The notes beneath the pieces were generated by a model. That model was not told where the DNA came from and searched no databases. It saw nothing but the letters and a program-made list of their open reading frames with translations. From Antedon mediterranea (lineage: Eukaryota; Animalia; Echinodermata), in contig NC_092678.1 in NCBI RefSeq assembly GCF_964355755.1, forward strand, positions 7,208,422-7,272,421: a stretch of 64,000 bases of DNA, given 5' to 3'. The stretch's first letter is position 1; each line of letters starts with the position of its first letter. This document shows positions 20,398 through 55,135 of this stretch, one piece after another. The translations under genes and the position numbers were made by a program.

Positions 20398-21558
20398 AAG
20401 ATTCAATCAATCATTCAATCGTTCGATTTATATAGCGCCATTCCAACATTCATTGCTCATGGCGCTGTAAAAAATCAGAAAAGGTGAGTTTTGAGTAGTG
20501 ACTTAAAGTGACTCAATAATGATGTGTGTTTAATGTTCAAGGGTAGGTGGTTCCAGAGCCTAGGTCCAGCAACACTGAAAGTCCGATCTCCCCAGCTATG
20601 TTTGCTCCTTGGAATGTCCAGTAGCACCTGATGACTAGATCTTAGTTCTCGCTTTCCCTTCTTGACTGTCAACAATTCTGAGAGATATTTTGGAGCGCAA
20701 CTATTTAGGCATCGGAACACCAGCAGCAGGATCTTAAATTTAACACGTGACTCCATGGGTAGCCAATTTAACTCTTTGAACAATGGTGTGACGTGATCAT
20801 ACTTCTTGGCACACATCACCAAGCGAGCTGCCCAATTTTGCACCTTCTGGAGAGTCCGCAACTGCTTCTTTGGCAGACCATACAGCAGGGAATTTCCCAT
20901 ATCAAGCCGACTGGTAACAAAAGCATGTACAATCTGCTCTGTTGCACAATGGTTCAAGTAACGTCTGATCTTGGCGATGTTACATAAATGGAAAATAGCA
21001 GATCGGCAGATTTTGTTGATATGTGATTCCATGGTCATTTTACAATCAAGTTGTACACCAAGGTTACGAACTTCTGATGATGGATTGACTAGTACGCCAC
21101 CAATATGTAGGCCATCAAACCGGATCTTTTTTCTCTGCTGAACAGAACCAAATAGGATCACCTCGGTCTTTTTATCATTTAGCTTGAGGAAGTTGGAGCC
21201 CATCCATTTTCTAATCTCAGCAGTGCATGCTTCTAACCGTTTTACGGCGGACAGAAACTTGGTCTGGCAAGGCTTGACAGAAACATAGATGGAAAACAGC
21301 TGTGGTCCAAGCACCGAACCTTGTGGGACGCCACATAATAGAGGAAGGTCATCTGAAACATCACCAATGCAGACGGCCTGGGTTCTGTTCCTTAGATATG
21401 ATGTGAACCAAGACAATGCTTGATCTCTTACCCCAATATCATGTGACAATCTATGAAGAAGCAGTGAGTGATCTACTGTGTCAAAAGCAGCCGATAAGTC
21501 TAGTAAAACTAGAATAACAAGTTCTTGATTATCTATTGATGTCAAAACGTCATTCTTA
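20398..21558 (-). mobile_element. 5'-truncated L2-clade LINE (reverse transcriptase C-half), internally deleted
   Basis: ORF 20475-21545 has [50 protein letters not shown] and LLKTHLF; the YADD segment is missing; short 3' UTR and (attg)n tail. Confidence 0.92.
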
Positions 21559-22405
21559 AAGACTTACTGTCCACGTACATTATAACTATAACTTTAAAAG
21601 TATGTGTTATTTATTTAGTTTTATCTACATTTTGTATATGCTTACATACTTTTTCAAATAGCTTCAATAATATATAATAATAATACCACATTTATATAGC
21701 GCCCTTTTCATGAGTAATCATGCTCAAAGGCGCTTTACAAGCATTATTACCCCAGTATTTTTGTTGGATCAAACACGTATGAAAACATACTCCCATAATC
21801 TTTATCTAACCGGGTACCCATTTATAAACCTGGGCGAAGAGAGGCAAACGTAAGTATACCCTTTTAAAGTATCTTGCCTGCAGATACAAGCAATACGGCG
21901 AGAGTTGGATTCGAACCTAGGTCTGACGATCGGTAGTCCAACGTCCAACACACTGCGCCACACGCCCCCGAAATCAAATGTTGATATAAAGTTTGCGGTA
22001 CACATGTATATTCCTTCTAAAAAGAACTGTTGAGTTTCTCGACGCTTCGATCAATATGCTTTAATCGTCCTCAGGAGTAATAACTTTATATCAGAATAAA
22101 TTTAATTTCTGACCGTTTTTATTAAATTTTTGTTTAGTTTTAATCTAGTCATTTATCTTTGTAACTGTATTGTTAATGTTAGAACGCACCCTTTTATAAA
22201 CGTGTGCTTTTGATCCAAAAGCGGCGTTCGATCGAATAAAGTTTGAGTTTCAGTCCCTTTTTCCCGACCAAGCTATGACGTCCCGCTTTTTGAAAAATAA
22301 ATGAATATTAATAATAAATCTGGAAAAGTACACTTTTGAAACAGTGGCACGCTTTTTGAGGGAATATGTGTTCAGAGTAAACAAAATATATGCAAGAAAA
22401 TTATA

Positions 22406-29947: not shown

Positions 29948-30957
29948 ACTAGGACGCTAGCCTTCGTTCAGATTAATTCAATTTCAGGATCAACCCATGA
30001 AATGTCCCGCTTCACGTAAATGTCGATATGTTGACAAAGTTACGAAATGTTTACACGTTTTAGAGAAACGCGATGCACAAAAATAGGGTGGAAAAAAAGA
30101 ATAATAGAGAAACAAAAATGTTGATGATGATCTCATACAATCACAAGGATCTTATCCACCCAAAATTGCCTGTATTCAATAACAACTTTCAGAAAACGGT
30201 CCATTTCTATGGACGTAAAACGAAATTCATTGTTAAATATCTCATTGTTGGGTATATGACAACTATTGTGCCTTCTAGGGTTTTATTATTAGAATTTCAA
30301 AGGCTATTTATATAACAAGAACATTTCTCATAATATCGCATAACAATTAAGATAATCCACTTCTACAATCGAATAAATAATTGAACAAATAACGTTATAG
30401 TGGGATGGTGAGAAAATATCTCATGGGTTGAAACATTAACTGCTCTATTTAACGAGCCTGATCATGGTAACCGTTACTCTTTTAGTGCTAACCCAGGCAA
30501 CAAGCAGTTCCTGTTATCGGTCTGTGAGTAGGATTTTAGCCGAAGTCGGTTTTATGATCGCAATCATTCACATGACTCCAATCAATTACCACAAAACAAT
30601 GTACAGTATATCATTCTAAAATCGTATAGTGGGCATGATAATGTTATTTTCCTATTTTAATTCTAGTTTAATTTATATAGGCCTACTGTGCAGATCTTTA
30701 TTCAAAACATAGAAAAACAAATATATTTAAAATAAATGAATAATCTTTTTTTATTTTCTATTAATTTCCATATAACATATTTATTATTTTGTGCATATCA
30801 TTACATAGCATACAACAAAAAGCTTTCCATTTTCATCCTGACATAACATACCAATTTGCAAAAATAAACTGTAATATCGTAAACATATTTGATCATATCA
30901 TTTTATAACAAGATACCTGTACTCTATTAAAGACCATACATAATATTGCTGTAAAAT

Positions 30958-31860
30958 CCTGACATAACATATCTGCACTTAATTGTACAAAGAGGCACTC
31001 TAACATTCTGACATAACATGTCTGCACTTAATTGTACAAAGAGGCACTCTAACATTCTGACATAACATATTGCACTTAATTGTACAAAGAGGCACTCTAA
31101 CATTCTGACATAACATATCTGCACTTAATTGTACAAAGAGGCACTCTAACATTCTGACATAACATGTCTGCACTTAATTGTACAAAGAGGCACTCTAACA
31201 TTCTGACATAACATATCTGCACTTAATTGTACAAAGAGGCACTCTAACATTCTGACATAACATATCTGCACTTAATTCTACAAAGAGGCATTCTGACATA
31301 ACATATCTGCACTTAATTGTACAAAGAGGCACTCTAACATTCTGACATAACATATCTGCACTTAATTGTACAAAGAGGCACTCTGACATAACATATCTGC
31401 ACTCATTTTACAGAGAAACTCTACCCTCCTGACGTAAAATATCTGCACTCATTTTAAAAAGAGGTACTCTAAGTTCTAACACTCTGACATAACATATTGG
31501 CACTCATTTTACAGAGAAACTCTACCATCCTGACAACATATCTGTACTCTTTTTAAAAAGAGGCACTCTAACATTCTGACATAACATATCTGCACTCAAT
31601 TAGACAAAGAGGAACTCTAACATTCTGACATAACATATCTGCACTCAGTTAGACAAAGAGGCACTCCAACATTCTGACATAACATATTATCTGCACACAT
31701 TTTAAAAAGAGGAACTCACATAACATGTTTGCAATCATTTTACAAAGAGGCACTAACCAACTCTAAGATCCAGGCATAACATACCTGTTCTTATTGCATA
31801 AACAGAAACTTTAACAACCTGAAATAACATATCTGCACTCGTTGTACAAAGAGGCACTCT
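30958..31860. repeat. Minisatellite, ~47-bp unit, directly downstream of the ATPase fusion gene's stop codon
   Basis: Unit ctgacataacatatctgcacttaattgtacaaagaggcactctaacatt; homogeneous to ~31400, then diverging. Confidence 0.95.
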
Positions 31861-31872
31861 AAACATGTTTAT

Positions 31873-34800
31873 TTACAGCATACCATCATTCATTGTACAA
31901 AGAGAAGCTCTTATCTCTTGGAAAGATTCACCACTAGCAGTGGTCTTTATAACCCGTTTTCTAACTTCAACTTGAGGATTACTTCCCTTCAAATGCGCAT
32001 CAATAGAATCGGCCAAATTATGATGAATTATCCAGCAGTCTCGTTCTCGAAGTTCAATAAGAACATCAAATGAAGGATCTCGTTGACGCTCCAGAACCGT
32101 TTTGGTCTGTGATTTTCGCGTTTTTACCTCTTCTTTGCCAAGAATAACACTATGCGCGCTACCGGCAATTGGTCGCAATGACGGATTACGATGAATATCT
32201 GCGCAGGATTGTCCATGTGCTGTTGCTATGAGCTGTACGCCTCGTTCAGCAATGCTCTGCGCTGCTTGTGCTTCTTGGATGCTACCCATCTCATCAATGA
32301 TAATGACCTCTGGGTTGTGGTTTTGTACAGCTTCAATCATAAATTTGTATTGTTCACTCCTAGGATGTACCTAAAATAGACATAGAGGAGGTTGGTGTCA
32401 AGAAACAACTACTCTGTTTAAGTGATGACATCAGAAATGTTGTCTAGAAACCTGGTTTACCGACAACGTCTGACACCCACCTAGCTTTCGACTTGCGACA
32501 ACCTACTGTAGAATCTAATGTCATCTGCAGACAGTGGGCCATGTGTCTTCACCCGATTCCTCGACACTGCTTCTAGGTCCAGGTAAAGACTACTGACACA
32601 ATGTGCGCAGGTCCTCACAAATCGCAAAAAACTCCCTATTGTTGTTACCAACCCTAGTAAATTTTATTTCTAAACTAAAGCTCTGTCTACACTATCAAAC
32701 TACTAACAAAAACTATGGTAGCGCTATACCCAAATATGGTAGTGATATGACATCATCATGTCCATATATGGACACATTTTTTTGTTGCATAAAGTTTGAT
32801 AGTGTAGACAGACCTTTACAATTCAAATGAATGTTATTCAATTCAATTTCTAATGAATGTCAAGCTCTGTCTACACTATCAAACTTTATGTGACAAAAAA
32901 ATGTGATGACATCATATCACTACCATATTTGGGCATATCACTACCATATTTTGGCACATATCACCATTTTTTTGCTAAACTATTTTGATAGTGTAGACAG
33001 AGCTTTAAAATAATCAGTATTAAAATATATCTATTTTATTTGTCATTTACCTGAAGTCGTCTAGCACTACCCAGAGAATCATGCAGACTATCCCCATCTC
33101 CACCAATCTGTGAACAATTCAAAACAATAACGAATAACTATTAATGTATAAGTAATGACGAGTATGGGTTCGGTCTGTCATGGTCATAGGCAAGATGAAT
33201 TGCCTTATACTCAAATTGCCATGGCCTTCAGATGGGACGTAAAGCTGTTGGTCCAGTGTACATACAGTTTTAAAGAACTTAAACTTTAAAAAAAGGCCTA
33301 CGGTATCTGTATTAATATTAATCCTCAAGAAATTCGGATTAGGTATACGGACCCATGGCAGAGATGAACCAGTGCACCAGGGTTACCCCCTACTCTTCCA
33401 AAAGATTAAATGGGTTCTGTGAACACGAGCCAGATGCGAGTCCTTATTCGAGAATATTTTTTCTACCACCAAGGAGAACTTGAACTATTGTGCGAATTGT
33501 ATTGTTAAAGTTTGTGGCTCACTTGCTCTGTGATGGCAAGTGGTGCAGTGTTTTGGATGTTGGACTACTGATAGTGAGATCGTGGGTTCGATTCCAATGC
33601 TCGTCGCATTGCTTGTACAGTATCCTTAGACAAGACACTTTACTTACATTTGCCTCTCTCTACCCAGGTGTCAAAATGGGTACCTGGTAAGGTCAAGACA
33701 CAACTTTGCGCTCATTACTAGCTGCATTACGTGTTTGATCCAAGAATGACAGGGTTAATATTATGTACAGCACTTTCACAACATTATGCGCTTTATAAAT
33801 CCAGGATATTATTATTATCCACTCAGCCACACAATTTGTCCCCAGTGTGTTTGGCTGGTGTGCTCACTGAATTTCCAGTTACGTACAGTATGAGAATTAT
33901 TATATTTACATATAATCATTACCTCATTTGACGTGTCAACAATCATCACTCGTCGTCTCATGACATCACTGAGCAGTCTAGCATATTCCCGCAGGACTGT
34001 TGTTTTTCCAACACCTGGGCTTCCAAGTATAAGAACAGATTTGTGGCTTGCCACAATGTCAAATATCATATCTAAGCAGCCATAGATGGCACGTCCAACT
34101 CGTGCAGTCAGCCCTACTGGTTTTAATTGCTTGTTTACAATGTTGCTGTAGTAGTAAAAAGTTTTTAAATGAGTTGTTTTTCTAGTTATTATTCAATATC
34201 ATGCACCAGTACTACATAGGAAAAAAGTTATCCAAGTTGTGAATATATGAACATTTTGTGCATAGATGGATTCAATTTGTTCTAGGCATTGTTGTGAAGA
34301 CACTGCTTTGGTGGATTGCATAGTGCACAGACAAATGAACGCCATTTGGCGGCAGATACGAAATGAAGAAACCCTTTAAAGAGATTGCAATATGTCGTCC
34401 ACATTTGTGCGTAATTCAGCTCAGTCCAACAGGCTGCAAAACACATTCCCACAAGAATGTTGAATTCAAGTTATAGCATTCACCGCGATATTGAAACTGC
34501 AAAAAATATTTTACCGTTCTTTTGTTTCAACCGATTGTAAACAGTATGCGTAACATGATTCGAGGAGTACGCATCAAAATGATTGCAACTTCGTTGAAGA
34601 TACGTATGCAATACAGTTTTCAGTTTTATTTTATTTTTATTTTTATTTTATTTTATTTTATTTCATACTCATCCAACAGCGAGTAACCCGCCAATTACAG
34701 GATGGATAAACTATTTAGTTCCTTTCAATTCCCGAAATGTAGCACATGTTCATCTCGAAGCATTTCAACAGTACCTTACACGATGAAGAGTGCCCTCTAT

Positions 34801-37800
34801 GCCTGCACGTCGATCTGATGAGAACTCTGTAAACTTGTTGCCAGAAAAAATGTCCTCAACTTGATGAGAAGTAATGACTGTGTCAAGTAAATACCTTGTC
34901 ACACACTTACCAGATTCCAGTTGATAATATCTATATGAATAATCAAAATGTTATTTTTTTAAATTAGTTGTTTTTCTATTCATTATTTAATATCATTAAT
35001 TTATCCATTCAGCGAGCTGGCTCACCCCGAGTTCCTGATACTATTTATAAATAAAAAAAACTTGATTTGAACTCGCAAGCATATATGTTCGCGCAAAGTT
35101 GATATACATATTCAACCCTACAACCCTAAAGTATTAGGATTAGTATCACAGATATACATAGTATAGCATAGGTGACATTAGATGACCATCCATATTCAAA
35201 TTTTGATATAGTGAACAAATAATATCTGAAACTATTATTAAAAGGTACTGTAATTTTCTGAGCAAGACACATTTTTGAAACACACCTTGCATGCGGCTTC
35301 CTTCCAATGTCTAACACGACCTCAATTAGAAGATCAAGGGAATATATTCCATCTTGCTGATGGAGAAAAAATAGCACCTCTTTGATTTCATCTGGAAAAA
35401 CATCCAGAAATAACTGCATATCTCTTTGATTATTCTCTTTAACACTGTCCAGCATTTTCTGGGTTATGTTTGTTGGATTGACAGATTCCAAATCCTAGAA
35501 GAACCAGAATTTTGATGTTGTTAAACATTAAAAAAACAAGGGCTGGCATTTATCAATCTCTTTGCCAGATTGTTAGGCTTTTTATTATTATGGGTACCTG
35601 GTAATATGTTGGTTACTAGCTGTAAAGTTACGGAAATATGTTTCCACACATGGTTTGATAAAAAAAAAATGACATATTATAATAATGCTTAGAGGTTTTG
35701 AGCATTAAGCATTATATGAAAGCTGTTAAAAAATATGAGTTCCCAGTTAAAATTGTGTTTATTATAAAACCTCAACCTTTTCATTAGCAACCACTTATTT
35801 TTGGATAGTGGGGCATTGTTTGATACATATAGGAAATTGACCAATGTAAATTTGAGGCATTTTTCAATCAACATATTTTACTACAAGTAACGAAAATGAA
35901 ATTTTTTTACATAAAAAGTCATTGAAAAAGAAATTGGAAAAAGTCCAGTAGAAGCGCCACTGTTTAAAAAGGGGCTTATTCTGTGGGGTTACTTTCAATG
36001 TTGTTGCCAAGGTTCGTATATTGTTAAACCTGGAGCTAACCTTTAAGTAAAATTTCACACTGTACCTCACTACCCTCTGGAAGAAAAAATGCTATGCCGT
36101 TGTTGTCAAACTGAAGGAAACGTGCTGTGTTCTCTTTCACCAACTGAGAAACCGATGTAGAAACTTTGTTTCGTTTGCTCAGTGGAACAGCTTGTGAAAA
36201 CTTTTGTTGGCTTCGAACTTCCTTGAATAAACTGCCCTCTTGTGGAATTTTCTTAACATCTGTAGCGCTATACCCTGATGCAGCCCTTAGTGTTAAAAAT
36301 TTGGGATGACCAGTTTCTTTGATATCTCTGGCAACTTCTAAAACTGCTCTGCAAGCCTGACCAAAACTGATTAAATCTTCAGTAGTTCTTAGAAGTCTAA
36401 TGAAAATATGAAATAACTGTAATAAAGAAACTATTATACAGTATGTTTACATACATTTATGTTGTCTGTTTAGTTGATACCAAAGAACTTATAACACAAG
36501 AATCTCCTGTTCGTCCGAAGCGCGTAACAATTTCGAAAGGCATTGTGGGATAGAATAGAGCTATGGGTAGCGCCATTGTGAGCCATGGAGTAGGGTGCCC
36601 GCATCAAATTAGAAAGTCAAAATCATAGAGGGGATCTGCTAATACTCTAGGGGGGATAGAGTAATTGACTGAGGAGTAGGGCGCCCGCATCAAATTAGAA
36701 AGTTAAAATCATAGAGGGGATCTGCTAATACTCTAGGGGGGATAGAGTAATTGACTGAGGAGTACGGCGCCCGCATCAAGTCAAAATCATAGAGGGGATC
36801 TGCTAATACTCTAGGGGGGTAGAGTAATTGACTTCCTAGTTTGGAGGGGGCGCTGCTCCATGCTGTGAAATGGCGTTGCCCAGTTTGACCTTTTAACCAT
36901 GTACTTCCGATACTGTGTTTTGAATGCAAATTGAAGAACAGGAGATTCTTGTGTTATAAGTTCTTTGTTGATACCAACAGTTCCAAACCTGTATATATAA
37001 CATCTATTTACTTTAGTATTCTATTGCTTGTTTACAGTATATTTTGTACTGTTTCTAATAAATGTGAATACAAAATTGACTTAAAATAAATACCAGTAAA
37101 AAGATTCAATTTATTGTCCAATCATATATATAAGGAATGAGGCAGTTTGATGTTACCAGCAGAAAGGTAGTTTTACAATAGAAACTACTTTTTAAATTTA
37201 ATTAAAATTAATTTCCTAATTATTTCAATCACTTTTGATCAAAAAGTGAATGGAAGTGGGTCTTCCCATTTCCAATTAACAAATAATTCAGGAAAATTAA
37301 GGCTTTATCTGTGATGTGAAAACTGTGTGGGATAATAATTAGAAAGTAACATACTTTTTATTATTTAATGAAAAACAAAGACTACTTTTTTTTACCAATG
37401 GTACTGTATGAACTTACGTAAGTAAATTACGGTAGACAGCTGGAACCATTGTTGTGACAATGTTTTTCAGATGAGCCTCTTTTGGATAGGTGACATTTAA
37501 GAATTCGCAAACCTGCTTGAAAGTTACTGCAGCTATTTGTTGTTTTGTAAGAATTTGGAAACATATCTGTGGAAAAAAAATCATAAAAAGAAAGTTAGTC
37601 TTAGGACTATTTTGTCTTAGACCATGTTGAGGTTGTTGTCCATAGACTATTGTGTCTAAGGCAACGTTTAGCTTGTCTTAGGACTCCCCATGTTTGGGTA
37701 TACATGTAGGTTGTCTCAAACCATGTTTAGGCTGTATTAGACCATGTTTAGGCTGTCTTAGACCATGTTTAGACTGTCATAGACCATGTTTAGACTGTCT

Positions 37801-39345
37801 TAGACTATATGTTTAGGCTGTCTTAGACCATGTTTAGACTGTCGTAAACCATGTTTAGACTGTTTTAGAATATATGTTTAGGCTGTCTTAGACCATGTTT
37901 AGACTGTCGTAGATTATGTTTAGGCTGTCTTAGACTATATGTTTAGGCTGTCTTATACCATGTTTAGACTGTCGTAGACCATGTTTAAGTTGTCTTAGAC
38001 CATGTTTAGGTTGTCTTAGACCATGTTTAAGTTGTATTAGACCATGCTTAAGTTGTCTTAGACCATGTTTAGGCTGTCTATGTCTATGTTTACTAGGTTG
38101 TCTTAGACCATGCTTTTAAGCAACTTAAAAGTTGTCTTAGACCATGTTTAAGTTTTTCTTTTTAAAGTTTGCTAGTGTAGATAAGTGTACCTTTGTATCA
38201 AAAATGTATGCAAGTTGTATCTGAAACTGGTCATACAGTGCTTTGGACATCAACCTGACATCATGGCAAACCTGTAAACAAATGTTGAAATTGAGTTTAT
38301 CAAATAACTTTTATACTAAATAATGGTTTTAGTTTTTCACACGTTCCTGAATCTGTTTTTAAAAAAAGAACTTGAGTAAATGTAGGCCTACCTTCAGAAT
38401 ATTTGGATCTTCAAGAAGTTCCTTAAGGCACTCTTTTTCCTTAATATGGAGATGGCCATCATTCCCATTGGGGAATTCAATAACACAAACATCTGCATCC
38501 CATGATGCCATGCCAATCCCTGTAATAACATATTTGGTGTTGTTGTAGAATCCCTCTGTATGTAAGGCAATGATTGGCTGTTCATAGTCGCGCTTGTTCA
38601 TCGTAAGAAATTTAGAAACTACATCTGATGTTGAACGGTCAACTACATCAATACTGTCACGTATATCCTGATGATCACTGACATCATCTGGAGAAACAAC
38701 TTGACAATCACTGGTGCCGTTGTGCAGTAGAAGCTGGTTACTGACAGATGAAACGACATCAGACTGCAAGTATTGCTGTTCTTGTGTCAATGCCTTTTTT
38801 TCAGTAGCTTTAGTTGAGCTTAGCACCGAGACATTTTTCTTGTTGCTTATATGAAACTCTTTCAATGAGGTCAAAGATTCGCGAAAACTTTCAATCGTTG
38901 TTCCCAGCCCAGGTTTATTTTGACCTTTTGTTTTTTTACAGTAGATAGAATAAAGCTCTTCCAATTTTACAAATTTGTTGGGACGTTGAAGAATTATGGT
39001 TTTTAACTTAACAATGTTCTGTTGCTTATTATCAAAGCCGTCTTGTACTTTTACAACTTGTTTTGGGGGTTTTCCTGGCACTTTGTTAATTTGTTTGATA
39101 TCACTTTGAAGAAGTTTGGCATTGGTTATTTCCCTCCCTTTGACGTTAAAATATTGTGGAAAGAACTTCACGCTTACCAGAAATTCGGCAGAGTTAAAAC
39201 CAAACATTTTAAGAATTGTAAAATTTGGTTTAATGGTGTTACGAAATCTACTGTATAGTTGATCAATCGTATTTGGACCCGTCTGAATTAGTATGTTCTG
39301 TATTGCAACAATATTTGCATTTCTTAGCTTGATTTCGTTTGACAT
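31873..39345 (-). CDS. ~885-aa fusion protein: Egalitarian-like winged-helix repeats + EXD1/Egl-like 3'-5' (pseudo)exonuclease + Ycf45/SpoIIIAA-like AAA ATPase. Exons 39345-38392, 38271-38191, 37566-37418, 36396-36066, 35494-35286, 34930-34775, 34145-33923, 33107-33051, 32370-31873
   Basis: All junctions are GT-AG and in phase (2658 nt including stop). Exonuclease-like motifs IIALHTEG, LKELLEDPNILKVCHDVRLMSKALYDQFQIQLAYIFDTK. Ycf45 motifs LIEVVLDIGRKP, DRRAGIEGTLHRVS, GLTARVGRA, Walker A GSPGVGKTT, IVDTSNEIGGDGD, MIEAVQNHNPEVIIIDEMG, IAERGVQLIATAHG, KTVLER. Confidence 0.88.
36481..36967. mobile_element. P-superfamily-like MITE with 7-bp TSD and an internal ~90-bp tandem repeat
   Basis: 32-bp TIR caaagaacttataacacaagaatctcctgttc; TSD ttgatac at 36474-36480 and 36968-36974. 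Confidence 0.85.
37600..38155. repeat. Minisatellite, ~21-bp unit (tagaccatgtttaggctgtct)
   Basis: Directly visible tandem array inside an intron. Confidence 0.9.
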
Positions 39346-49085: not shown

Positions 49086-49310
49086 TCCACTTAAGGCACA
49101 AAGTTTAAATTATAGGCCTACACCTGACAAAACTGTTTGCTCTTTCTTCTAATCGGCAATTGGTTAAAACAAATGTAGCAAGAAGCTGATTGGCTCAATG
49201 TTTGTTCAAAACCTCCTACATTTAAAAAATCATTCACTTTGCTTGCAAAGTTCCAATCACGGTGTTGTTCGTTACAATCTGCCTTCTTTCTATTTTTACT
49301 TATTATCATT

Positions 49311-52300
49311 ATGGCCGATCATGAGTTTGATGCCTTGAGAAACTATCTACAAAACAACGTTTATCCTGTAAATTATTCTGAAATATTAAAACGAAGTTTG
49401 CGACGGAAAGCCAAGAACTTTACAATTCTTCGTGATATCTTGTATTACAAACAACATTCTGGTAGATTGTTGCGTGTATTGTTACCGAAAGAAAAACACG
49501 AAGTGTTAAACAGTATCCATAAGCAGGCACATGGTGGTCACTTGGGTGTCAACAAAACGTAAGTTTAAAGTTTGTCAATTAAATAATATTTAAGCTTCGA
49601 TAAGTTTCTGGGTGACTTTAAAACTGTTTATATGTTTGGCCAGGTGGAATGCCATCCTGAGATGAGTATTAGTAATTAGTACAGCATTGTTTTTAAATGA
49701 TTTTATACGTAATTTTACTTTCTGTGGACCACAGAATTCGAAACAAATGATTAAATGAATGAATTAAATGAATAATAACTAATACTTATCAATTGAAAAA
49801 TGTATAATGACCGTGTACATTATGAAGTTAGTATTTTATATATAGATTCAAACATATTTTTATACCTCCATGAATGAAAAATATGTTAAGTCGATAATAA
49901 TTTCTACTCAATATATTATCGCAATTAATTGTATAAATATATTGAAGTTGAACATAAAATATCACATGTAAAAAATACAAAACATATATTGGCATTCAAT
50001 AATTAATCAAAAATGTTCCGAATATGAGCACTGTTTCAATAATTTGACAGATTATTATTATATAATTTACACAGTGCTACACAACGCATATATCTTTAGT
50101 TCAAAATTAAGATATCTCTTTTAATAAAGATAGATTATTTCAATTGAAAACTAAGATGTCTTACTTTTTAAAAGAAATATCTATGTTAATAGATATTTTT
50201 TTGTAGGCTTATTACACCTCGAAAAACCAAGAAGAATACAGTACAACTAGCTCTATCTATAATAGTAATGTTTTAGTTTTATAACAGTTCATATACGGTA
50301 CTCTACACGTGCCCACTGCATAACTAACACAGAAAAAAATCCACTTGTGATATTCCGAATGGGACAAGAATCTTCCATTCTAAATATCTTGGTAAGTAAG
50401 TAATATAGAGATATCCCTCATGAGAGATATCTTAGTTTTAAATAGTGATACAAATACTTCCCGAATGAAAACTTATTCAGGTCTTGGTATAATAAATATG
50501 TTCAATATTAGTTGCTCATTCATAATGCAAAAAGCCATATCAGTATTAACTTTCGTTCGTTTAAAATGTATACTTATGAAAGAAAACACAATTTGACAAA
50601 AAAAAAGGTAAGGAAGAAGACTTTTATTATGTAACTTTAAAGTGGATTATTACATTTTTTTTTAGGGAATACTTCTTTAAAAAAAACGCATTTTCAATAA
50701 CAAAACTAGTTTCCAATCCCCCGGTAATGGAGTAAAACCACCTGCAGCTTATGTAATGAAAAAAATTAACACCATGTAGAACGATCAACAACGAATGTAG
50801 GAACGAAAATTGCATCCCAGCTAATGTAGGACTATCGCCAGCTAATGTAGAAAATATATATTTTACAAACCTAAATGTCTAAATCATGTGCAAATGCATC
50901 TGTTTACTTAGCTATCCATCTATCCACGTCTCGTAACCGACCAACTTTCTAAAACGACCACACATCGTAAGCAACCAACTCTTTTAAGGGACCGTTTCTC
51001 ATAATCGACTTCCTCTCTCGTAACGACAACTTTTTTGGGTGACCACCTCTATTAAACGGCCATCGTCTCTGTTAAGGGATCGCTTCCCATAATCGACCAA
51101 CTATTGTAAGTGATCACATCCTCTCATTATGGACCGCTTCTCATAATCGACCACCTCTCGTAGTAAGCGACCACCTCTCTTAACAACCACAACTCTCGTA
51201 AGCGACCGCTTTTTATTTTCGACCGCCTCTCGTAAGTGATGATCTCTTTTAGAAGACCACCATATCTCTAAATGGACCGCTTCTCATAATATACCAACTC
51301 TTGTATAAATCACCTCTCTTAAGTGACCACTTCTAATAAACGACCTCTCTGTTAGGAGACCGCTTCTCATAATCGATCACATATCGTAAGCGACCACCTC
51401 CCTTATCGACCACATCTTTCGTAAGTGACCACCTATTTTAAAGGACCACTACCTCTCGCAATCTACCATTGTGGCTCACTAAAAAGTACCCGGTTTCCTT
51501 AATAGGGTGTCCTCTACATTTTAAAAATAAATAAATTTAACCAGTATGTAGTGTTAAAACGTATATATTTCCCCTTGTTTATTTTTTAAAAAAAAGTGGC
51601 GATTTTTATATCTACTCTGTCGCACATTCACCAAGCGTACACAATAATTCTAGTAGGACAATTAATTATTTATACTTTTCAAGTTAGTTTTTTATTGCCT
51701 GAGTGAATTATTACCAGATTGAGGGCGTAGTTATTTTGTATGGGAGGCTGCACTCAATTTGAAGTTTATATGGGGGTATTTAGAATGTAAACACGGTACA
51801 ATCAGGGAGATGTAAATCTCCCTGGTACAATGTGACACGGAATCATCACGGACTGATGGACATTTTTCATAGAAGGTATCTTTTCCCTTTTCAATATTCA
51901 TTTATCATTGTCAAATAAAAAAACTAGAAACATAGATAAATATTAAAAGTGAATTAATCAGTTGTGCCCAGTGCTTGCCTTAAACGAAAAGTTAAAATAT
52001 ATGGAACGCCAAACTGTAATGTTATTATAATGCATTGATGAGAATGGTGATGTGAACTGCGGTAATAAATAATAAATAATATTAAAAAACAAAATAAAAT
52101 TAAAATATTTAAAGAATCCATAATACAGTTTTAAGGTCAATAGTAAACCTACAAAGAGATTGAATATCATCAATACAATAAACACATTTTTTTTTTTTTT
52201 TAACAGTTGGAAAAAGATACGCGAAAGGTATTATTGGAAGGGGTCATTTGATGGTGTTCGTAATTTTATAGCCGCCTGTGATCAGTGCCAACGGAAAGAA

Positions 52301-55135
52301 GTTTTAAAAAAAGCAAAAGTGCCACTTCAACCTATACCCGTAACAGATACTGCTTTCAGACAGATCGGTATGGATATTGTTGGGCCTTTGGTAAAGACAG
52401 AAAATGGTAAGGTATCTCATGACAAATTACTGAAAAACAAAAATGCTGTGACTGGATAAAAAAGCTAAATCAAAACGTAAAAGTAAAAAGCAAGAAGACA
52501 TGAATGAAATACGTTCAGAAAACTTTGTAATTCATTCTTCAGGGCCTAAAATTACAGTTAATAATTAGTTCTGTTCGGCCTTTATTGTAATAGGGCTGAA
52601 CTTAAATTTATTATTGTAAAGGCACAAGCGCAATTTCTGTGAGGTTTCTTGAAATTGTTAACTAAACTAAAATTATGACAGTTCTCTTTTTTACACTGTC
52701 AACAAAAACTAGATTTACCAAGAATCAGATGCTCTTATTATTGTCACCGGATTTACATCGATTATGGCTATACTGTAATAATCTTTATTTCTGCCTGTTT
52801 TAATTTGATCCAAACCATGACTGGGGTAATACTGTTCAGCGCATAGAGGTTTTACAACATTAGGCGCTATGTAAATCCACGATATTATTATTGTTCTTGT
52901 TCTTATTATATTTATTGATATTAATATTGTTATTATTATTGTTATTTCATTCGTACAGTTCGGGTGTTGTACATCTCATCATGACATTTTGACACTACTA
53001 TTATTACGGCTTATTATATTATTATTTGCTGTGTTTCAGGTAATCGGTACTTACTTGTATTTACGGAGTACCTTACCAAATGGGTGGAAGCTGATGCAAT
53101 TCCAGATAAATCTGCTAAAACAGTGCTGAGATCTTTTATTGATTTTGTCTGCAGACATGGAACACCTTCTATATTGATTACAGACCAGGGTAGAGAGTTT
53201 TGTAATGAGCTGAATGACAGCTTCTGTAAGCTGATTGGGGTAGACCACAGAGTTGCCTCACCATACCATCCTCAAACAGGCGGGCAAACGGAGCGCTTTA
53301 ACAGAACACTTTGCACAATGCTTATGACGTTGACCAACGCAGACCAAAATGACTGGGATATACAACTCCCATACGTGTTGTTTGCCTACAGAACATCCGA
53401 GCACAAGTCTACGAAATGTGACCCATTCTCATTAGTTTACGGTAGAAAGGCTGTGTTGCCTGTAGAATTACGTATTCCCATCGTTTCGTCTAATAAAGAT
53501 GACATATCCGGAACTGTTCCTTTAAAAATAAGAGTGGACGCTTTTTTGAAACTCAAAGATTCAAGGAGAAAGGCATCAGAAAATATCAAAAAAGCACAGA
53601 AAAAGCAAAAACATTATCATGATGCTGGTGTTAAAAGCAACACGTACTATGCAGGAGATCAAGTGCTCTTGCAGAATTCCAGAAATTTGTCAAGAAAGGG
53701 AGGCAAACTTAATGCTCGATGGACTGGTCCATATATTATAGAAAAAGTCCTCACTCACAATACATATCGACTAAAAGGAAGAAGGGCTATTGTTAACGGA
53801 AACAAGATCAGACATTACAAGTCCGATAAAACAACCTCTTTGAACTGTCCATCATCAAGCACTAAACAGAAATGTAATACCAATGATAAGCATCTCCCTC
53901 CAAAGAAACGAAAGCGAACGCCAGACATCCCACCTGAAGTAACGCACCATGATAACATACCTACATCCAAGAATGGTGATATCACACCGGATGATCACAT
54001 TATTAACATACCTACATCCAAGAATGTTGATGATAACGATAACAGACCTACATCCAAGAATTATGATATCACACCGGATGATCACATTAACATACCTACA
54101 TCCAAGAACGATGATATCACACTGGATAATCACGATAACATACCTACATTAGACAATGATAATGTCGCACCGGATGATGACCATGACAACAGTAGGCCTG
54201 TATCTGATAGTGATGTGGTATACCTCAACACGAAAACTTCAAGAAAGTTATTCTTTCCTGTCGATGCCAATTGGCAGCTTGAAAAGGCAGCACCATTTGG
54301 TATCAATGTCAAAAATTTTCACAAAACTCACTTAAAATGTGAAATGGACAAGGCAGCCAGGCCTACTAAAGTTGTTAATATGAGAGGGGACGGCAACTGT
54401 CTTTTTAGGGCTTTGAGTTATATTCTCTTTGGTGTCCAGAACTACCATGTAGTTGTACGGGATTACATACTAAACTATATGTCCATGAACAAAAACCTAT
54501 TTGAAAAAATTGAATCCAGATCATTTGAACGATACGTGGAAGACACGAGAATGGGGGAATATGGGACATGGGGTTCGGACATCGAAATCATGGCATTTGC
54601 GACCATGTCAAATACGAATGTTTATGTTTACAGTAAATATGGAAGAAGGAAAGGGCTTCCACATTATGAATGGTTGAAATATGCACCAATAAGTAATCAG
54701 TTTGGTGATTTAGTATCTGAAAGAAACATCTACCTATCAAACTTATGTGCACACTTTGAGCCTGTCCTGGATGTAGACAAGAAAACTTATGACGCTGAAT
54801 TAAAATACACTCGTACACCATACGCACCAATCAAAAACCACCTTGCACGGAAATACTGGGATATTGTATCCGATGTGACCCTCAATGCTGCTCTGGTAGA
54901 TAATTACGAAGATGAAGCGGTAATGCGTTCCGAAGGCATTATGGACGTTATATACGTATCTGAATTCACGGACACACATTATGACATTGAAGCAGTCAAC
55001 CATCTAAAAGATGATATCGATCCAAATATATTCAATTTGCTTTGTGACATGGAACATTTCCCGGAAAGGATTCATCAGAGCAACAATGAAGTACCTGGAC
55101 AATTATATGTTGATTCATACAACGTCACTCTTTAA
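49311..55135 (+). CDS. Ginger1 transposase (Gypsy-like DDE integrase) fused to an OTU cysteine protease, 847 aa. Exons 49311-49558, 52207-52406, 53040-55135
   Basis: In-phase GT-AG introns. YL...YP...LYY (YPYY-type) motif; H-H-C-C zinc finger (IHKQAHGGH...CDQC); DDE triad (GMDIVGP, ITDQGREF, QTERFN); WTGPY; basic PPKKRKR; repetitive linker; OTU motifs GDGNCLFRALS, WGSDIEI, AHFEPV. Confidence 0.93.
53945..54185 (+). repeat. Coding minisatellite in the integrase-OTU linker
   Basis: aacatacctacatccaagaa..atgatatcacaccggatgat repeats encode NIPTSKNxDITPDDH units. Confidence 0.85.

Follow-up and report, generated by a model that had tools for sequence, protein, structure and literature searches.

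A nine-exon gene on the minus strand

We analyzed a 64,000-nucleotide stretch of the genome of the crinoid Antedon mediterranea (contig NC_092678.1, positions 7,208,422 to 7,272,421; hereafter, the window) and, within it, a minus-strand gene at positions 31873 to 39345. An initial annotation, made from the sequence alone, had joined nine in-phase exons at this locus into a protein of about 885 amino acids, in which RNA-binding modules resembling those of Egalitarian (Egl) and EXD1 precede an ATPase of the Ycf45/SpoIIIAA type. A search over GT/AG boundaries upheld this model: the gene has nine exons encoding 885 amino acids, and 8/8 introns are of the GT-AG class. The translation agrees at 885/885 residues with the database protein XP_071960333.1 (P0001) from A. 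mediterranea, which is annotated as uncharacterized and ranked first when the last exon was used as query. Because XP_071960333.1 is a gene prediction, probably made on the same assembly, it is not independent support for the exon model. The nine-exon model is correct, and the gene is real. Prokaryotic contamination was considered and rejected, because the gene is interrupted by eight spliceosomal introns and DNA contigs extend across these.

Exon 1 (38392 to 39345; amino acids 1 to 318) encodes two winged helices (approximately residues 2 to 75 and 104 to 175), a disordered linker, and the first half of an exonuclease fold, including the Exo I motif, in which H262 replaces an Asp and E264 is kept. 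The fold continues in exon 2 (38191 to 38271; residues 319 to 345), where the Exo II motif has M326 instead of the catalytic Asp, and ends in exon 3 (37418 to 37566; residues 346 to 395), whose Exo III helix is approximately 17 residues shorter than that of the crinoid Anneissia. Exon 4 (36066 to 36396; residues 395 to 505) supplies a long post-exonuclease helix, a basic disordered linker (residues 424 to 483), and a β-hairpin conserved in the echinoderm members. The N-terminal domain of the Ycf45 ATPase begins in exon 5 (35286 to 35494; residues 506 to 575) and extends through exon 6 (34775 to 34930; residues 575 to 627), which includes a predicted subunit interface. Exon 7 (33923 to 34145; residues 627 to 701) carries the conserved R642 and R645, Walker A (K674), and a D697-E701 motif, and exon 8 (33051 to 33107) encodes residues 702 to 720. 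Finally, exon 9 (31873 to 32370; residues 721 to 885 and the stop codon) contains Walker B (D746 and E747), H772, and the end of the ATPase, with no R3H domain after it.

RNA support for this model comes from one sequencing run of one study, X1. None of the runs is labeled as RNA; X1 is assumed to be, as a guess supported by its joins across introns. The fraction of words from the 7.7-kb stretch that occur in X1 is 0.36, near the coding share; the runs X2 and X3 are DNA-like and read through introns. A single X1 contig of 2469 bases spans the exonuclease exons to the ATPase exons, consisting of 31637 to 32367 (which extends beyond exon 9), 60 unplaced letters at the position of exon 8, 33923 to 34930, 35286 to 35493, 36065 to 36396, and 37418 to 37566, followed by a CT..AC joint to 38191 and 47 letters further. 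Since this one contig crosses introns, a single spliced molecule contains exons of both the exonuclease and the ATPase, rather than these being divided between transcripts of two separate genes. Five joins are supported in this way (37566/38191, 36396/37418, 35493/36065, 34930/35286, and the 60-letter stretch at the place of exon 8); they include both junctions that the initial annotation had singled out for checking, 36396/37418 and 35494/36066, the latter seen as 35493/36065. The spliced join of exons 6 and 7 is not covered in X1 contigs. The gene is expressed at least in part.

Several sequence features accompany the gene. Relative to the window, X1 has in-frame insertions of 18 bases in exon 3 (at 37483, within the shortened Exo III region) and 6 bases in exon 1 (at 39136). 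A tandem array with a 49-bp unit (30952 to 31687) starts at the gene's 3′ end, and further arrays lie in intron 3 (86-bp unit, 36587 to 36833) and intron 2 (21-bp unit, 37707 to 38112). Contig depths indicate that introns 8 and 3 contain high-copy dispersed repeats.

Winged helices, an exonuclease fold, and a Ycf45-type ATPase

To describe the protein, we used an AlphaFold 2 (AF2) model built on a 95-row alignment, which had a predicted local distance difference test score (pLDDT) of 79.5 and a predicted template modeling score of 0.54; a single-sequence run gave a pLDDT of 32.5. Besides the two winged helices, the model places the exonuclease fold at residues 236 to 423 (approximately), a hairpin and helix at 484 to 535, and the ATPase up to residue 881. 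Disordered linkers occupy residues 78 to 105, 177 to 235, and 424 to 483, the last with a pLDDT under 50.

Both N-terminal domains matched a profile of Egl winged helices derived from an alignment that included no fused protein (hhalign, 96% and E value of 1e-9 for winged helix 1 and 76% and 2e-5 for winged helix 2; controls, 0.1 to 0.2%). The Pfam model WH_Egal scored 16.5 bits on exon 1, below its cut-off of 27, which was passed in four echinoderm relatives. When used alone, the N-terminal half retrieved Egl clusters in the ESM Atlas (score, 0.91). The initial annotation described this region as two similar repeats; this holds for the predicted folds, which are alike, and for the matches to the Egl profile, but not for the sequences, as the two winged helices had no BLASTP match to each other at an E value of 10. 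Both are basic (10 K+R against 4 D+E and 14 K+R against 6 D+E).

An exonuclease-like domain of the DEDDy type, as initially annotated, follows: DNA_pol_A_exo1 matched residues 251 to 356 with 27.4 bits (cut-off, 23.6). Sequence comparison with solved structures gave 13 matches, of which the exonuclease homology domain (ExoHD) of Egl was best (E value, 2.5e-14) and EXD1 next (4e-6). With the AF2 model, Egl-BicD-RNA structures ranked at the top in Foldseek, and Egl 9rvy_D ranked first in VIA-align (Z score of 21.1 over model residues 1 to 429), its root mean square deviation (RMSD) being 25 Å because the domains are placed differently. Of the four catalytic acids, only E264 is kept, H262 and M326 replacing two Asp residues; in the Exo III motif of Anneissia, the last Asp is also replaced. 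With three of four catalytic acids lost, the domain is predicted to be inactive and is likely dead as a nuclease. E264 corresponds to Glu563 of Egl, which alone among the catalytic residues contacts the RNA 3′-OH in the Egl-K10 crystal structure (10.1101/2025.08.03.668247).

The initial annotation had also stated that Egl and EXD1 use their exonuclease fold noncatalytically. ED1, ED2, and ExoHD of Egl bind double-stranded RNA without catalysis, in a pocket built from two polypeptides (PMC13186709), and the related EXD1, whose exonuclease is inactive, has a role in the PIWI-interacting RNA (piRNA) pathway (10.1101/2025.08.03.668247). Fly Egl, however, keeps all DEDDy residues intact (Asp561, Glu563, Asp621, Tyr704, and Asp708; 10.1101/2025.08.03.668247). 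Drosophila Egl (Protein Data Bank [PDB] codes 9uju and 9rvy to 9rwb) is the best solved relative of the Antedon protein by sequence and by fold; both begin with Egl winged helices, after which come a DEDDy exonuclease homology domain and a long helix. Egl differs in having all catalytic residues, a tetrahelical XAD, a dynein-light-chain site, and no ATPase, whereas three of the acids and most of the XAD are gone from the Antedon protein, which has an added Ycf45 ATPase. EXD1 (PDB codes 5fis and 5fiq) belongs to the same group and is likewise inactive but has no ATPase, and its match covers just ~60 profile positions. Separate winged-helix/exonuclease proteins without the ATPase also occur in echinoderms, including the P0273 cluster (Holothuria) and P0242 of Anneissia, with an intact tetrad. 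These two belong to a set of short proteins from hemichordates and echinoderms (with P0248 and P0279), auto-named EXD1-like, that have a single winged helix and an exonuclease domain without XAD or ATPase; by eye, 3/4 have the full catalytic tetrad.

The C-terminal domain is a complete Ycf45-type ATPase, as first proposed. It scored 55.9 bits with Pfam Spore_III_AA (PF19568; cut-off, 27). Walker A (G668 to T676) and Walker B are intact, and R642, R645, and H772 are present; of the 117 columns that are conserved among prokaryotic homologues (at least 24/25), the Antedon ATPase keeps 99. Bacterial and plastid Ycf45 (SpoIIIAA-like) ATPases share ~45 to 52% identity over this domain and all main motifs; unlike the Antedon protein, they have a C-terminal PF25516 domain and R3H and no exonuclease or winged helix. 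The reported absence of R3H was borne out: in Pfam, neither R3H nor PF25516 matched at an E value of 0.01, and the protein ends with the ATPase, whereas two bacterial homologues scanned alongside carry both. True SpoIIIAA membership was ruled out by TIGR02858, which gave 77.8 bits against an equivalog cut-off of 281. Thus, the Antedon protein is a member of neither Egl, whose catalytic residues and XAD it lacks, nor SpoIIIAA.

The ATPase fold matched the PilT/VirB11 class (Z scores of 13 to 16 over 250 to 286 residues and RMSD of 4.4 to 6.1 Å in VIA-align; Foldseek E values of 1e-8 to 2e-12). The best Foldseek match among ATPases was archaeal PINA (PDB code 5f4h; E value, 2e-12), followed by PilU, PilT, CpaF, and VirB11. 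PINA, which has a PIN-ATPase-KH architecture, forms hexamers and moves Holliday junctions (PMC6061704). Like the Antedon protein, it combines a nuclease-fold domain, a PilT/VirB11-class ATPase, and a nucleic-acid-binding module, and it works as a hexamer on nucleic acid; however, its nuclease fold is PIN rather than DEDDy, it has a C-terminal KH domain instead of N-terminal winged helices, its substrate is DNA, and identity is 12 to 13%. A three-copy model of residues 520 to 852 had head-to-tail contacts and a score of 0.48, compared to 0.00 for the best control; the runs agreed in at least 72% of contacts, with pLDDT of at least 78. The mark for this score was reached by 21/30 solved microbial pairs, 0/23 single chains from microbes, and 7/16 animal pairs, and the pass may reflect memory of, or likeness to, solved PilT-like rings. 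Modeling predicts that the ATPase self-associates head to tail.

Distribution and origin of the fusion

The exonuclease, the linker, and the beginning of the ATPase of the Anneissia protein, used as query in a full HMMER search, gave 132 matches, and 15 of the 130 noncrinoid ones also matched the ATPase. These 15 fusions comprise six echinoderm records (Lytechinus variegatus, L. pictus, two from Diadema, Strongylocentrotus, and Apostichopus), one chytrid, and eight unnamed or environmental records. Beyond Antedon, relatives were thus found in one other crinoid (Anneissia), four sea urchins, and one sea cucumber, with an identical domain order annotated in Anneissia, Lytechinus, Diadema, and Apostichopus. 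The three-part form, with Egl winged helices, exonuclease, and ATPase, is common to three echinoderm classes (crinoids, echinoids, and a holothurian), and the exonuclease domain is degenerate in all six sea-urchin and sea-cucumber records. Copy and repeat numbers vary: two Anneissia loci have 3 and 4 winged helices, compared to 2 in Antedon, and sea urchins have two subfamilies.

Eukaryotic fusions outside animals (PF01612 with PF19568; the chytrid P0352 and others) share the order of exonuclease and then ATPase, and no R3H was seen. They differ in that most keep the full nuclease tetrad (6/9, with 1/9 truncated and 2/9 degenerate), none scored with the Egl winged-helix profile, and in trees their exonucleases fall apart from that of echinoderms. 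A LOTUS-like N-terminus is present in one (E value of 0.0016, under the cut-off); the N-termini of P0282 and P0315 matched neither LOTUS nor winged helix. An ESM Atlas cluster (score, 0.93) had 60 eukaryotic members, 97% with Spore_III_AA and 70% with DNA_pol_A_exo1, Oomycota being the commonest. Among the best 120 of 7996 and of 2484 matches, there were no exonuclease fusions besides three crinoid proteins; the sea-urchin fusions also lay outside these. The initial annotation had implied that the fusion is unique, and this was not borne out: there is a wider eukaryotic exonuclease-Ycf45 family, and what is new is the echinoderm form with Egl-type winged helices and a likely dead nuclease. YCF45 of Phytophthora and Naegleria has been listed as of cyanobacterial ancestry and unknown function (PMC3087521).

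Other arrangements were also seen. P0299 (Logan; 1077 amino acids) has two tandem degenerate exonuclease domains followed by a Ycf45 ATPase, and prokaryote-type Ycf45 ATPases are fused to PF12705 in P0233 and to PF00117 in P0168. We take PF12705 to be a PD-(D/E)xK nuclease family. Profile scans for Ycf45 relatives kept 80 loci in genome contigs, mostly from Chloroflexota, and 19 in viral contigs; the four strong viral-collection matches (L081 to L084; E values of 2e-53 to 2e-31) may be host DNA.

We then compared histories of the two enzymatic domains. The ATPase tree had 41 rows, including 25/223 prokaryotic domains after near-copy removal; Sesamum and three truncated ATPases were left out. 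Echinoderms fell on one side of a branch (support, 93/97), with the crinoid branches shortest. The branch separating all exonuclease fusions from prokaryotes and Chara had a support of only 89/65 in a tree that includes long branches, and forcing the echinoderms with the prokaryotes was not rejected in the approximately unbiased (AU) test (p-AU, 0.12). Exonuclease trees were unrooted and covered 123 rows in a quick analysis (four divergent or doubtful domains left out) and 47 of these in a careful one (three gappy urchin rows left out). In these, the rows nearest to the crinoid domain were Egl-type, without starred support. Grouping of this domain with those of the nonanimal fusions was rejected, both as an exclusive clade (p = 0.0003) and with the whole surrounding clade (p = 0.018; this group was defined with the tree already known). 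The linker hairpin before the ATPase gave no significant match as a sign of a single fusion event: the best nonanimal protein scored 0.7 bits, below two controls (hhalign E value, 0.11). The trees are unrooted, and two histories fit them. In one, the ATPase was gained in the echinoderm stem, when an Egl-like protein of animals took up a Ycf45 domain; in the other, the fusion is old and ancestral to animal Egl-like proteins, and only the echinoderm branch still has the ATPase.

Elsewhere in the window, pieces of an integrase element lie at 49179 to 55135 on the plus strand, where a 716-amino-acid frame encodes a zinc-binding Integrase_H2C2 domain, an rve core, and an OTU protease domain; the element resembles Ginger/GIN-type transposons. 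A long interspersed nuclear element-like reverse-transcriptase fragment occupies a 362-amino-acid open frame at 20475 to 21563 on the minus strand.

A possible RNA-remodeling ring ATPase

In agreement with the initial annotation, we found no description of a protein with the winged-helix, exonuclease, and Ycf45 architecture in the open-access literature. A paper on the OST-HTH domain mentions neither an ATPase nor Egl, according to a term search (PMC2848206). Arabidopsis SPD1 is reportedly Ycf45-like.

By analogy with its best-studied relatives, we tentatively propose that the Antedon protein may be an RNA-tethered ring ATPase that remodels RNA-protein complexes without cutting RNA, a reading to which we give slightly less than an even chance. 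Given the predicted PilT/VirB11-type fold and head-to-tail self-association, the assembly would probably be a hexamer, to which six pseudo-nuclease domains and twelve winged helices would be attached by flexible linkers. Winged helices and pseudo-nuclease domains, possibly of different subunits, might clamp structured RNA by its backbone, as in Egl, and ATP-driven movements of the ring could displace proteins or unwind or release the RNA, by analogy with PINA. As for the cellular setting, mRNA handling or germ-line control of small RNAs or transposons would be guesses. In favor of the proposal, this ATPase family is repeatedly paired with nucleic-acid-binding modules, namely, R3H in bacteria and a LOTUS-like domain in one nonanimal eukaryote.

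A number of observations weigh against it. Most PilT/VirB11-class ATPases act on proteins, and in VIA-align, PINA (Z score, 14.7) was tied or passed by DotB (15.9) and by PilT and GspE (15.1), so the fold gives no preference for a nucleic-acid substrate; nor did we find an activity for any Ycf45 ATPase in the open-access literature. The exonuclease fold is net acidic (21 K+R and 25 D+E), and it is followed by one helix (residues 400 to 423), the XAD being otherwise missing; by eye, the basic XAD sequence of the Egl-like P0272 has no counterpart. In Egl, XAD deletion severely cuts RNA binding (PMC13186709). The sea-urchin and sea-cucumber ATPases keep 62 to 69 of the 117 columns, and two are without the Walker B Glu. 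At the RNA level, X1 contigs do not bridge the exon 1/2 join, exon 1 being covered by separate short contigs only, and the sole RNA contig that spans the two halves retains intron 6, resulting in a translation stop at residue 630, before Walker A. Exon 1 differs between X1 and the window at 18/742 bases, and its codon changes (19 nonsynonymous and 4 synonymous) look neutral, without a sign of purifying selection (binomial p = 0.80).

These observations bear on four other explanations. The ring might act on proteins, with winged helices and pseudo-nuclease serving as docking sites for partners, as Egl ED1 docks on BicD (PMC13186709), and with RNA incidental; the missing XAD, the nonbasic exonuclease fold, and the equally good fit of DotB, PilT, GspE, and CpaF would suit such a motor, as would the binding of Vasa by LOTUS domains that is reported in a reference title. 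We nevertheless consider it unlikely, since all modules seen fused to this ATPase family are of nucleic-acid type (R3H, DEDDy exonuclease, LOTUS-like, and Egl winged helix) and 6/9 nonanimal fusions have a complete nuclease tetrad. A shade less probable is a role as a rapidly evolving sensor or scaffold in small-RNA, anti-transposon, or antiviral defense, in which the N-terminal modules diversify against foreign RNA and ATP is an assembly switch. Paralogues in Anneissia and sea urchins and the differing winged-helix number of the crinoid proteins, together with the role of EXD1 in the piRNA pathway, would suit this explanation, as would the far greater variability of exon 1 compared to exons 5, 7, and 9 (1/926 bases differ in the latter; Fisher p = 5e-6). 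However, the ratio of codon changes fits neutrality rather than positive selection, and the X1 contigs covering exon 1, unlinked to the ATPase contig, may derive from a paralogue.

If the N-terminal modules were instead decaying relics or spacers on an ordinary Ycf45 ATPase with an unknown housekeeping role, the shortened Exo III helix, the in-frame insertions in X1, the neutral-looking variation of exon 1, and the subthreshold WH_Egal score would all follow. This is improbable, as the modules persist in crinoids, echinoids, and a holothurian, with WH_Egal above cut-off in four relatives and high-confidence predicted folds, and identity to Anneissia is 52% for winged helix 1, 48% for winged helix 2, and 47% for the exonuclease (80% for the ATPase). 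Least probable by far is that the gene model wrongly joins transcription units (at exon 1 or the ATPase exons) or that the locus mostly yields noncoding, intron-retained RNA. The unbridged exon 1/2 join and the retained intron 6 point that way; against this, the exonuclease fold starts within exon 1, which supplies its first half, and goes on in exon 2; exons for exonuclease and ATPase occur together in one contig; and the annotations of Anneissia, Lytechinus, Diadema, and Apostichopus show an identical order.

The RNA-remodeling reading can be extended to an echinoderm ring ATPase that turned into an RNA machine, its Egl winged helices and dead nuclease selecting structured RNAs that the ring then remodels. 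In its boldest version, the fusion would be a relic of the ancestor of Egl, which then lost the ATPase and gained dynein, a history that the unrooted exonuclease trees would allow. We regard this extension as doubtful. If the RNA-remodeling reading is true, the protein would provide a handle on what Ycf45 ATPases do and on where Egl-type RNA adaptors came from. To our knowledge, no PilT/VirB11-class motor is known to operate in animal cells, and an RNA-directed member would be an added motor class in animal RNA biology. Sea-urchin embryos would be practical for knock-down and localization of this protein, although the urchin ATPase is more degenerate than that of crinoids.

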